A DNA stretch of 64,000 nucleotides, from the NCBI GenBank assembly GCA_030599585.1, contig JAUVNS010000020.1, positions 1 through 64,000 of the forward strand, in the 5' to 3' direction. The stretch comes from Promethearchaeota archaeon. GTDB taxonomy: Archaea > Asgardarchaeota > Lokiarchaeia > Sigyniarchaeales > SOKP01. Below, piece by piece: positions 7,513 through 25,460 of the stretch (the first letter of the stretch is position 1; each line of letters starts with the position of its first letter). The translations under genes were made by a program, and so were the position numbers. Below the pieces are notes generated by a model that saw only the letters and a program-made list of their open reading frames with translations, was not told the DNA's origin and did no database searches.

Positions 7513-7815
7513 TTAATCTTTCTTAAGAATCAACTTATTAATAGAAATATCTTGGTATTCTCCACTTGGATATTTCCGCCTTATAGTTAAAGGTAAGATT
7601 TTTGCTTTTAATTCTAATAGAGCGATTTTAATTGGATCGATGACATTTTTGGGCTTGTGTATTAGGATGGGAGCTCCGAACGAGATTTGTAAAGCCCTAG
7701 CGCCAGTAATTCGCGCTTTTTCATATCTTGTAAGAAAGATTGAACCAACCTTAATCGTTTTTCGAACTTCTTTATATAACTTCCTCAATTCACGAGATTC
7801 TAAAAAAGAAGACAT
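7513..7815 (-). CDS. rpo6: DNA-directed RNA polymerase subunit K (Rpo6/RPB6)
   Basis: LTRYEKARITGARALQISFGAP...DPIKIALLEL...LPLTIRR signature. Confidence 0.96.
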   Translation of the reverse strand: MSSFLESRELRKLYKEVRKTIKVGSIFLTRYEKARITGARALQISFGAPILIHKPKNVIDPIKIALLELKAKILPLTIRRKYPSGEYQDISINKLILKKD

Positions 7816-7924
7816 AGTATTAACCTAAGAATTAGTAACTGTCTTTTCAAATGTATTTTAAAATAAAACTTTTATGGTTTTCTTCCGATATCAATTAGAA
7901 CGATTGTTTTTACGTGGTTAGAGA

Positions 7925-8093
7925 TGGTGCGCAAGGGGGGAATTTTTCAGTCTAAAAGAATTTTTCAGACTTTTGAACCCCCGACCGTCGAGATTAACGC
8001 CATGAATTAGCGAAAATTTACACGGTGTGAGCGTTTAACGCTTTCCAAAATATAGCTTTAGAAAGTGTCGTTATACGTCTAAACCACTCGCGC
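7925..8093 (-). tRNA. tRNA-Val(CAC) with three non-canonical introns (approx. 28/29, 44/45, 59/60) and encoded CCA
   Basis: Acceptor stem GCGCGAG/CTTGCGC plus A-CCA. Removing 8035-8066, 7987-8018 and 7942-7971 gives anticodon arm ACACG-CT-CAC-AC-CGTGT, variable loop AGGTC and T arm GGGGG-TTCAAAT-CCCCC (75 nt). Confidence 0.8.
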
Positions 8094-8259
8094 AACCTAT
8101 TGTGAATAAATATTATAGATTAATTATTAAAAAGGTATTAATATAATTTAAGAGATTCTATAGACTCTGTAACTTTAATAAATTTCTAAGCTATATCTCT
8201 TTGAAAGAGTTTCGTTATGATATTTACTGGTGATTTGAGTATCAAATAAGGAAGACTTT

Positions 8260-10575
8260 ATATCGCACCCGCTTTTAAAGGAAAACATTGTTCTGAGGAG
8301 AGCATATCAAGAAAATATTTTTATAAATTGCCTTAATGCAAACTGCTTAGTTGTCATTCCAACGGGATTAGGAAAAACAATAATTGCTTTAATGTTAGCT
8401 ATACACAAATTGTCAGAAACGCCTAATTCTAAAATAATCTTCTTAGCTCCAACTAAGCCTCTTGTAAATCAACATTATAAATCTTTTTTAGATTTAACGG
8501 TTATTCCTGAAGAGAACTTAAAAGTAATTACTGGAACTACATCACCAGAGAAAAGGAAGGATATTTGGAAGGATTTAGAAATTGCTTTTATGACACCTCA
8601 GGTACTTCAAAATGATATTATCTCTAATCTTTACTCGTTAGAGAATGTACCGTTAATAATTTTTGATGAATGTCATCGAAGTGTAGGTGATTACGCGTAT
8701 TGTTTTATTGCTAAGAAATATGTCGAATCCGCTAAGAATTTTCAAATTTTAGGTCTTACCGCAAGTCCAGGATCTACGGAAGAGAAGATTAACGAAATAA
8801 AAAAGAATTTATATATCGACCATGTCGAAATCAGAACAGAACAAGATTCGGATGTGAAACCTTACATCTTTAAGGTTGAGAACGAGTGGATTAAGGTTAA
8901 ACTTCCAAGTGAATTTATGGATATTAAAAAAATAATAACCGAGAAATTAAGAACAATTTATAAATGGTTAAAGCAACAAGAATTACTAAATTCGTCAGAT
9001 ATTACTAAGGTTACTAGAAAAGATTTGCTTGCGTTAGATAGAGTAATTAATGGAAGAATTTCCTCTGCAAGAACAGATGAGGAGAAGTTTAGATTATTTA
9101 CTGCGAAAAAATCTATGGCAAATGCGATAAGATTGTCCCACATGGATGAACTTATCGAGACTCAAGGAGTTAGCGCATTAGATGATTACATGAGAAAAAA
9201 TATTAAAAAGATAAAACAAAACACTGCAAATAAATCACTAAAAGAACTTTTTAGAGATTCTGACATAAAGCGCGCTCTTAGGTTAATAGGAACTAGCAAA
9301 CAAAAAGGTATTGTTCATCCTAAACTTGAAAAACTTGCGGAAATTTTACATAATCAGATCATTGAAAATAGAGACTCGAGAATATTAGTATTTTGTCATT
9401 TTAGAGACTCTGTCAACAATATAGTTAAATTTATTGAAAGAGATGAAGTGGTTAAGGCTCACAAATTCGTAGGACAAGCTAACAAAGCTCTAGATAAAGG
9501 TCTAACTCAAAAAAAGCAAATTCAATTACTAGAAGAGTTCAAAGAAGGAATATATAACACATTAATAGCTACAAGTGTTGGAGAAGAAGGTTTAGATATA
9601 GCGGAATGTGATTTAGTAATATTTTATGACATAGTACCAAGTGCTGTGCGTTCTATTCAACGCCGAGGAAGAACTGGGAGAAAAAAGGAAGGAAAAGTTC
9701 TCTTATTAATGGCTGAAGGTACTCGTGATGAAGGATATTTTTGGGCTGAAAAAGCTAAGGAACGGGTTATGCATCAAAGCTTAAAAAACATGAAAGAAAA
9801 TGATTCAAGCTCGAAAGCAGGACAATCAAACCTTTTAAATTTTATAAAAGAAGAAGAAGACAATAAGGATTCTAGTAATTTAAAAAATATTTCAGATTTA
9901 TCGTCTATCCAGAAGATTGAGGGTGCTCAGGATTACACAATAATTTGTGATAATAGAGAGACAGCCTCTGCTGTTGTTAGAGCATTATCCCTTATGGGAG
10001 TTAGTTTAGAACTAAAACAATTACCCGTCGCAGACTATATACTCTCAGAAAGAGTTGGGATCGAAAGAAAATCAGCACCAGATTTTAACGATTCCGTTAA
10101 GGATGGGAGACTGTTTAATGAACTCTTTGAGTTAAAAAACAATTTTGTCAGGCCCATTTTAATATTAGAAGGGGACCCTTTTTTAAATTCAAACATTAAC
10201 CAAAACGCCCTCTACGGTGCGATTACTTCAATAATTTTGAATTTAGGAATTACAATATATAAAACAAACAATCCGTCTGACTCTGCCATGTTTATTTATC
10301 AGCTAGCTAAAAAAGAACAGTCAGATACTAAAAAGGAATTTAAATTAAGATTTGACAAGAAACCAATAGAAATTACTAGTTTATTAGAATACATCGTTGC
10401 AGGTATACCAGGTATAAACGCTCTTAGAGCTAAAAACTTACTTAGAGAATTGAAATCGCTTCAAAAGATTTTTAACGCTGATATTGGGGATTTAATGAGT
10501 GTTGAAAATATTGGAAAGAAAATTGCTCAAGAAATATATAAACTAAGCAGATTTAAATATCAAGATAAAACCTAA
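8260..10575 (+). CDS. hef: Hef / FANCM-like DEAH helicase-ERCC4 nuclease (N-terminus extends upstream of the ATG at 8392)
   Basis: The in-frame upstream sequence SHPLLKENIVLRRAYQ...IPTGLGKT (Q motif and Walker A) precedes the ATG. Also DECH, LTASPG, QRRGRTGR, ERCC4 DNRE...ADYI...ERK and a C-terminal HhH. Start is inferred at ATA 8260. Confidence 0.93.
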   Translation: MSHPLLKENIVLRRAYQENIFINCLNANCLVVIPTGLGKTIIALMLAIHKLSETPNSKIIFLAPTKPLVNQHYKSFLDLTVIPEENLKVITGTTSPEKRKDIWKDLEIAFMTPQVLQNDIISNLYSLENVPLIIFDECHRSVGDYAYCFIAKKYVESAKNFQILGLTASPGSTEEKINEIKKNLYIDHVEIRTEQDSDVKPYIFKVENEWIKVKLPSEFMDIKKIITEKLRTIYKWLKQQELLNSSDITKVTRKDLLALDRVINGRISSARTDEEKFRLFTAKKSMANAIRLSHMDELIETQGVSALDDYMRKNIKKIKQNTANKSLKELFRDSDIKRALRLIGTSKQKGIVHPKLEKLAEILHNQIIENRDSRILVFCHFRDSVNNIVKFIERDEVVKAHKFVGQANKALDKGLTQKKQIQLLEEFKEGIYNTLIATSVGEEGLDIAECDLVIFYDIVPSAVRSIQRRGRTGRKKEGKVLLLMAEGTRDEGYFWAEKAKERVMHQSLKNMKENDSSSKAGQSNLLNFIKEEEDNKDSSNLKNISDLSSIQKIEGAQDYTIICDNRETASAVVRALSLMGVSLELKQLPVADYILSERVGIERKSAPDFNDSVKDGRLFNELFELKNNFVRPILILEGDPFLNSNINQNALYGAITSIILNLGITIYKTNNPSDSAMFIYQLAKKEQSDTKKEFKLRFDKKPIEITSLLEYIVAGIPGINALRAKNLLRELKSLQKIFNADIGDLMSVENIGKKIAQEIYKLSRFKYQDKT

Positions 10576-24080: not shown

Positions 24081-24181
24081 CGCACCTGGAGGGATTTGAA
24101 CCCCCGAGCGCTTACGCGCACTGGCTTACTTGATCGTATAATTTACTCAAGGCCAGCGTCTTACCACTAGGCTACAGGTGC
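24081..24181 (-). tRNA. tRNA-Ser(TGA) with canonical 37/38 intron (24127-24145, 19 nt)
   Basis: GCACCTG/CAGGTGC plus G73; CTGGC-CT-TGA-G[intron]A-GCCAG; long variable arm; BHB central helix CTTG/CAAG. Confidence 0.9.
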
Positions 24182-25232: not shown

Positions 25233-25334
25233 GCAAATGTCGCTTAGCTTGGTAGAACGCTTAAGCGTGCTAAAAGCGCTGGATTGCTAATCCAGTGTCC
25301 AACGGACTCGAGGGTTCGAATCCCTCCATTTGCG
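25233..25334 (+). tRNA. tRNA-Ser(GCT) with non-canonical D-arm intron (approx. 25256-25274)
   Basis: GCAAATG/CATTTGC plus G; CTGGA-TT-GCT-AA-TCCAG; long variable arm; ACGCT-TA-AGCGT intron hairpin inside the D arm. Confidence 0.88.
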
Positions 25335-25357: not shown

Positions 25358-25460
25358 GGGCCCATGGTCTAGTGGTTATGACGTCTCGCTTACACCGAGA
25401 AGGTCGGGAGTTCGATTTTATAGCGAACTTATCGCTCTTACGAAAACCTCCCTGGGCCCA
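25358..25460 (+). tRNA. tRNA-Val(TAC) with 59/60 T-loop intron (25417-25446, 30 nt)
   Basis: GGGCCCA/TGGGCCC plus A; TCTCG-CT-TAC-AC-CGAGA; GGGAG-TTCGAT[intron]C-CTCCC; BHB helix TTCG/CGAA. Confidence 0.9.

Follow-up and report, generated by a model that had tools for sequence, protein, structure and literature searches.

We analysed a 64,000-nt stretch of archaeal DNA (the window) and found on its minus strand a 169-nt valine tRNA gene, which is split into four pieces by three short introns (Table 1). The initial annotation had proposed a tRNA-Val(CAC) with three non-canonical introns of the bulge-helix-bulge (BHB) type here, and comparative and structural evidence back this assignment. The gene is very probably functional in its host, a Lokiarchaeia-type Asgard archaeon. 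Support for the locus is comparative or predicted throughout, and the assembly is a metagenome-assembled genome with an estimated contamination of 8.9%. The neighbours of the gene are rpoK/Rpb6 and a gene for a Hef-like helicase-nuclease.

Table 1. Features at the tRNA-Val(CAC) locus (window coordinates; Sprinzl numbers are based on a 7-nt D loop with position 17 absent)
Feature	Coordinates	Strand	Remarks
rpoK/Rpb6	7513..7815	-	neighbouring gene
Whole tRNA-Val(CAC) gene	7925..8093	-	72 nt exon + 94 nt intron + encoded CCA
Exon 1	8067..8093	-	Sprinzl 1-28
Intron 1	8035..8066	-	32 nt, site 28/29; alternative register 8034-8065 gives an identical product
Exon 2	8019..8034	-	Sprinzl 29-44
Intron 2	7987..8018	-	32 nt, site 44/45
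Exon 3	7972..7986	-	Sprinzl 45-59; end at 7973 if the cut is at 58/59
Intron 3	7942..7971	-	30 nt, T loop, site 59/60; alternative register 7943-7972 (site 58/59) equally possible
Exon 4 + CCA	7925..7941	-	Sprinzl 60-73; exon 7941-7928, CCA 7927-7925
A/T-rich box CCTTTTTAATAAT	8123..8135	-	-42 to -30 of the gene; putative promoter element
Hef-like helicase-nuclease gene	8392..10575	+	neighbouring gene

Read on the minus strand, the locus starts with GCGCGAG-U-G and finishes with CUUGCGC-A-CCA, which gives a 7-bp acceptor stem, a discriminator A and CCA. Exon 1 contains the 5′ strand of the acceptor stem, U8, the D arm, position 26 and anticodon-stem positions 27 and 28. Exon 2 continues the anticodon stem (29-31) and carries the loop CUCACAC with the anticodon CAC, the stem positions 39-43 and A44. 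Variable-loop positions 45-48, the T-stem 5′ strand GGGGG and the T-loop bases UUCAAA make up exon 3; exon 4 supplies U60, the 3′ strands of the T and acceptor stems and the discriminator A73 (A7928). When the three introns of 32, 32 and 30 nt are removed in silico at the borders in Table 1, the remaining 75 nt fold into a proper cloverleaf, as the initial annotation had expected, and ARAGORN calls this 75-mer tRNA-Val(CAC). The product has the features of a class I tRNA: the 7-bp acceptor stem, D, anticodon and T arms (the last reading GGGGG-UUCAAAU-CCCCC), a 5-nt variable loop, U33, a purine at position 37 and A73. The identity elements for ValRS are A35, C36 and A73. Exons are 57% GC and introns 31%, with the genome at 32.6%. 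CCA is encoded at 9 of 35 orthologous loci.

The D loop is atypical. It is a 7-nt loop, AGACGUA (AGACGTA in the DNA), with a single G; the initial annotation had already noted that the usual GG is lacking. The missing G18G19 is unusual for a working tRNA and does not by itself exclude function. The same form, AG-N-CG-UA, is common to 14 of the 33 aligned species described below, and the remaining congeners keep GG. Across these 33 species we saw no strict association between the GG-less D loop and the presence of intron 1. As a separate observation, C17 G18 U19 of this loop (8074-8080) can pair in the precursor with A29 C30 G31 of exon 2, forming an outer helix that adjoins intron 1.

A BLAST search of 60 relatives with the locus as query found orthologues throughout the genus. 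In several of the matches, query positions 1-29 directly abut positions 60-169, so that intron 1 is missing. We aligned 33 congeneric loci with MAFFT, following a spliced alignment, and the gaps fall exactly at the three introns, at the sites 28/29, 44/45 and 59/60 that had been proposed from the sequence of the locus. Scored as presence (1) or absence (0) of introns 1, 2 and 3, the 33 species comprise 111 (15 species), 011 (8), 110 (3), 010 (3), 001 (2) and 000 (2). Intron 1 is absent with exact borders in 15 of the 33, intron 2 in 4 and intron 3 in 8; each insert is precisely missing from orthologues, and an intact mature sequence is left behind. The species without intron 2 also place its junction at A44|...|G45, because three of them read GUGUA-GGUC and one GUGUA-GCUC across this point, with variable loops AGGUC and AGCUC, respectively. 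A search with the unspliced locus gave no convincing match beyond the genus. When we used an intronless orthologue as BLAST query, we retrieved the gene from other genera of the family, in which it is intronless or has introns at 28/29 alone, at 44/45, at 59/60 or at the canonical site 37/38.

The same comparison bears on whether the locus is a decaying pseudogene whose inserts are neutral junk, with GUG codons read by tRNA-Val(UAC). The D loop without G18G19 would fit such decay, neither ARAGORN nor Rfam detects the gene, and a Val(UAC) gene lies 17 kb away at 25358-25460. This reading is, however, highly improbable. Across the 33 species the exons are invariant or show only compensatory changes in pairs (in exon 2, 14 of 16 columns are invariant), while the introns fall to about 45-50% identity between clades. 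The intron helices covary, as detailed below, and therefore splicing must be under selection. The GG-less D loop is itself conserved in 14 of the 33 species, and so is a box upstream of the gene. Another intact Val(CAC) gene had been named as a finding that would speak against the locus; short-word BLAST of the mature sequence found a single copy in the 4.85-Mb assembly, with all four exons matching at 8093-7925 only. Genes for tRNA-Val(GAC), which is intronless, and tRNA-Val(UAC) are also present in the genome.

One congener, the bin G015, has two different Val(CAC) loci. One (L030, on C2) has intron 3 only; the other (L031, C41:1-120) is G006-like, carries introns 1 and 2 and lies at the start of its contig. 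Either this reflects a second strain or contamination of the bin, or the two are true paralogues.

The borders of the three introns lie in BHB-type motifs. At 28/29 we find the central helix AACG/CGUU that the initial annotation had described, with the 5′ bulge ACA cut as AC|A and an inner stem of 9-10 bp. The 3′ site of intron 1, AA|A, lies opposite UAU in a 3x3 internal loop closed by pairs between the D loop and exon 2, and because of this position the motif counts as relaxed (HBh′-like). Intron 2 shows the full hBHBh′ geometry: a 2-bp outer helix, 3-nt bulges UA|A and AC|G, the central helix CGUG/CUCG and an inner stem AUU..CGC/GCG..AAU. Its central helix has one U-U mismatch, noted earlier together with the 3-nt bulges at 44/45; the mismatch occurs in 17 of the 29 orthologues that have this intron, and the other 12 have a perfect CACG. 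For intron 3, two registers can be drawn. At 59/60 all four pairs of UUCA/UGAA form, with a 5-nt 3′ bulge, and this is the site and helix first described for the locus; at 58/59 the geometry is a canonical 3-4-3, and the helix GUUC/GAAA contains a single G-A mismatch. The inner stem measures 8-9 bp. In roughly half of the relatives the last pair of the 58/59 helix is G-U or G-C, and six of these can form the 58/59 helix only. We infer that the T-loop cut falls at 58/59 or 59/60; the two registers change the mature tRNA at position 59 only, giving the T loop UUCAAUU or UUCAAAU, respectively. All three motifs fall short of a perfect hBHBh′ and count as relaxed forms.

We then turned to covariation across the 33 orthologues (alignment A1). 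In the spliced cloverleaf, 95.1% of cells are paired and 100% in four helices, with complete pairing in the acceptor, anticodon and T stems. The sole unpaired position is U13-U22, the usual mismatch, which is also found in the tRNA-Val of Haloferax. Nine cloverleaf pairs change on both sides, a number that none of 500 shuffles reached. In the intron helices, 86.5% of cells are paired, compared with 33-48% in slid controls, and both partners have changed in 18 pairs. For the introns, the covariation score is 0.140, against 0.067 in shuffles and at most 0.051 in slid controls. Pairing in the central helices reaches 100% for intron 1, 83% for intron 2 and 94% for intron 3, and the inner stem of intron 3 shows covariation; the motif helices have been kept by compensatory change. 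In intron 1 this extends across the splice border. The pair formed by exon position 23 (alignment column 24, precursor position 22) and its partner in the intron changes from A-U to G-C or G-U, along with a change of the D-stem pair U12-A23 to C-G. This is direct compensation between exon and intron.

Folding of the precursor gave a minimum-free-energy structure of -58.3 kcal/mol (z = -6.4), in which the acceptor stem closes three hairpin domains. This fold is without the canonical bulges of introns 2 and 3, and for this reason we relied on covariation rather than on thermodynamics. Conformers with the canonical motifs are predicted to lie 2.7 to 7.2 kcal/mol above this minimum for a single motif and 14 kcal/mol above it for all three together; enforced jointly, the three motifs coexist in one nested structure at a predicted -44.1 kcal/mol.

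The initial annotation had concluded that alternative pairings imply ordered splicing. The central helices do each take a strand of a mature stem, which means that the precursor cannot be a cloverleaf, and the minimum-free-energy fold is without the canonical motifs of introns 2 and 3; cases in which one intron must go first are documented (tRNAscan-SE 2.0, PMC8450103). We nevertheless find the inference unsupported and consider an obligatory order unlikely. The motifs occupy separate precursor segments (22-60, 68-110 and 112-158). Deleting the other introns leaves the predicted penalty for forming a motif as it was: for intron 2 it stays at 7.2 kcal/mol in all three contexts tested and for intron 1 at 4.3 kcal/mol in the two contexts tested; for intron 3 it is 2.7 kcal/mol. 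Among the relatives, introns 1, 2 and 3 are each found alone, and the mismatched version of intron 2 occurs in genes that have no intron 1. The only competitors of the three motifs are the D and anticodon stems of the mature tRNA, which arise once splicing is complete. Unlike in Thermoproteales, moreover, the introns are neither nested nor abutting, so no order is implied by their arrangement, and we infer that the three splicing events are independent.

The genome encodes two paralogues of the splicing endonuclease EndA, of 200 and 201 residues (G000 C24:165434-166036 and C35:67190-67795), which are 28% identical to each other. The best PDB match of the paralogue on contig C24 is the alpha subunit of the Aeropyrum pernix enzyme (3P1Z chain B; E 1.4e-33 over 172 residues). 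It keeps the catalytic Tyr/His/Lys, and its SKPR stretch aligns with K44/R46 of the specificity loop; in A. pernix the loop lysine confers cleavage of non-canonical, relaxed motifs (PMC3241643). The paralogue on C35 has Ser in place of the catalytic His. Judging by these residues, the pair appears to fit the two-subunit (alpha/beta) enzyme type of broad specificity. The heterotetrameric EndA of A. pernix, which has the Crenarchaea-specific loop (PDB 3P1Z/3AJV; PMC3241643), resembles it in the alignment of the alpha subunit, the catalytic triad, the K-P-R stretch and a second paralogue without the catalytic His, and differs in that the Asgard enzyme is known here from its sequence. An RtcB ligase is also encoded.

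These enzymes bear on a further alternative, that the gene is real and one or more of the inserts is retained or removed by a route other than EndA. In its favour, introns 1 and 3 have relaxed motifs, and a 2026 preprint notes that canonical motifs are missing from some intervening sequences in Asgard tRNA genes and that splicing had been shown for none (10.64898/2026.10.13.758758). Each of the three inserts, however, interrupts a stem or loop that the L-shape requires, and all three have a 4-bp helix, a 3-nt 5′ bulge, an inner stem and covariation; the alpha subunit, in turn, carries the loop lysine tied to cleavage of relaxed motifs in the A. pernix enzyme (PMC3241643). We therefore judge such a route very unlikely. 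Taken together, it is very likely that the locus is a single functional Val(CAC) gene with three BHB-type introns that are cut by EndA and joined by RtcB.

Maturation along this route would begin with transcription from the conserved A/T box about 35 nt upstream, yielding a precursor at least about 170 nt long. In this precursor the acceptor stem would close three independent hairpin domains, each with a BHB-type motif. Exon sequence would supply half of each 4-bp central helix: intron 1 would use positions 23-26, intron 2 positions 39-42 and intron 3 the T loop. The alpha/beta EndA would cut within the bulges, and RtcB would join the four exons; the D and anticodon stems would form only after joining.

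The box that would drive transcription, CCTTTTTAATAAT, is probably a TATA/BRE promoter element of the Val(CAC) gene. The form CTTTTTAATAA is found 41-59 nt upstream at 25 of 34 orthologous loci despite diverged flanks. We also tried CTTTTTAATAA as a general tRNA promoter and rejected it: a looser set of motifs occurred at 2 of 30 tRNA genes, one of them Val(CAC) itself, with a background of 2%. Since the box is not a general tRNA motif here, its reading as TATA/BRE draws on conservation among the orthologues.

It had been predicted that standard scanners would miss this gene, and this holds for ARAGORN with and without intron search (-i) and also for the tRNA model of Rfam, even with the cutoff relaxed to E<=10. 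In the 64-kb window, ARAGORN finds one tRNA and an Rfam search at gathering score three, none of them at 7925-8093. ARAGORN with intron search of the whole genome did not report the Val(CAC) locus, and a permissive Rfam search of 7700-8350 (E<=10) gave no tRNA match and only two chance sRNA matches. The orthologues show how the introns affect detection. Intronless orthologues, whose exons depart from those of this gene mainly at the D loop, reach 67.2 and 63.8 bits with the Rfam tRNA model (gathering score 29); a copy with intron 2 alone reaches 50.5 bits, and no match is returned for copies that have only intron 3 or that have two or three introns. In default mode ARAGORN reports only 17 intronless tRNAs in the 4.85-Mb genome. 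Annotation of this and related Loki-type genomes with ARAGORN or Infernal would list the Val(CAC) isoacceptor as missing.

The initial annotation had called triple-intron tRNAs best documented in Thermoproteales. Thermoproteales tRNAs with up to three introns are indeed textbook knowledge (PMC4390854, PMC8450103), among them tRNA-Glu(UUC) of P. calidifontis and tRNA-Pro(UGG) of P. islandicum (PMC4390854, citing Sugahara 2008 and Fujishima 2010; PMC8450103). That view is out of date, and Asgard archaea are now the best-documented case. In three complete genomes of Atabeyarchaeia and Freyarchaeia, 92-95% of tRNA genes have introns, and over half have several (PMC11291895). A census of Asgard archaea counted 2.2 intervening sequences per gene in its focal families and 0.9 in other Asgard families; misses by tRNAscan-SE were common, gains had occurred repeatedly, and EndA was usually present as two paralogues (10.64898/2026.10.13.758758).

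Asgard tRNA genes with several introns have therefore been published already, and Val(CAC) is a clear further example that does not reveal a new mechanism. The gene is like those described (Valentin-Alvarado 2024; Goswami 2026) in belonging to the same phylum-level group, in its BHB-type motifs and in having several short introns (about 20-35 nt) at non-canonical sites that include the T arm and variable region. It also shares with them the failure of automated annotation, the repeated lineage-specific gains and a pair of EndA paralogues that would fit an (alpha-beta)2 enzyme. The published genes come from Atabeyarchaeia, Freyarchaeia/Jordiarchaeia and others, whereas the present Lokiarchaeia-type genus is named in neither text; our results add a Promethearchaeota genus to the Asgard lineages known for heavily interrupted tRNA genes. 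As in the three-intron pre-tRNAs of Thermoproteales, a single gene can hold as many as three BHB introns, located at non-canonical sites, and related introns recur in different tRNA genes (here Arg(GCG) and intron 3, see below). Processing in Thermoproteales relies on an (alpha-beta)2 EndA of broad specificity that has a specificity loop, and an enzyme of this type is predicted here. Unlike the Thermoproteales genes, this one comes from another phylum and from an AT-rich genome of the mesophile type (32.6% GC).

A series of sister species with zero to three introns in one gene is unusually clean. It may serve for dating gains and losses, for working out what the endonuclease requires of a motif and for studying how introns arrive. 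Neither this series among the 33 congeners nor the mosaic described next was found in PMC11291895 or 10.64898/2026.10.13.758758. The allele of G022 (L015, G022:C121, 1496-1662) is a mosaic when compared with those of G010 (L005) and G006 (L026). Its intron 1 is identical to that of the G010 lineage at 32 of 32 positions and, with flanking exon bases, forms an identical patch of 57 nt; its intron 2 is identical to the G006 lineage at 31 of 31 positions. The remaining segments differ from both lineages. Intron 3 is closest to that of G032 (22 of 30), and exon 1, like the flanks, is similar to G006 and G035. A chimeric assembly seems an unlikely cause, as the shared exon stretches of 10-16 nt are too short. 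The mosaic suggests recombination or exchange of introns between lineages. One could go further and regard Val(CAC) as a live record of intron turnover and exchange, in which introns, or gene segments that carry them, pass from one lineage to another through recombination across the conserved exons; we offer this tentatively and hold it to be possible rather than probable. If true, recombination would be a concrete route of intron arrival, a matter that the 2026 Asgard census left open (10.64898/2026.10.13.758758).

We also scanned the genome for other interrupted tRNA genes with a scanner of our own, which anchors on the acceptor stem and the T arm and deletes BHB-like segments. It yields a partial inventory, since it requires a GTTCRA T arm and misses several known tRNAs. 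The anchors gave 67 loci in the real genome, mostly tRNAs, against 8 in a dinucleotide-matched random genome. The scanner recovered the Val(CAC) gene with the same borders and found intron 1 independently; its top-scored solution for this locus, with a long variable arm, was wrong, and the correct one ranked fourth. Several two-intron tRNA genes were found as well.

Other tRNA genes in the window and elsewhere in the genome appear similarly interrupted. The tRNA-Val(UAC) gene, on the plus strand, has a single 30-nt intron in the T loop (59/60) and only a partial Rfam match (22.8 bits at 25365-25421). Directly before it, a tRNA-Ser(GCU)-like gene (25233-25334) appears to carry a 19-nt intron in the D arm. 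At 24081-24181 (-), an intron-containing tRNA (Rfam 47 bits) adjoins tRNA-Lys(CUU); ARAGORN reads it as Ile(UAU) with an intron of 8 nt, apparently a mis-parsed non-canonical intron. A tRNA-Asn(GUU) at G000 C3:23918-24110 (+) requires four deletions (39, 22, 28 and 30 nt) to give a cloverleaf in our scanner, and tRNA-Glu(UUC), just upstream at C3:23745-23873, has two introns. Finally, the tRNA-Arg(GCG) gene at G000 C9:92030-92132 (-), with counterparts in congeners (L036-L040), carries in its T loop a 30-nt intron with about 70% identity to intron 3 of Val(CAC), the same loop, AAAAnUUCUUU, and a compensating stem. This likeness reflects either common origin or convergence under the same motif constraints.
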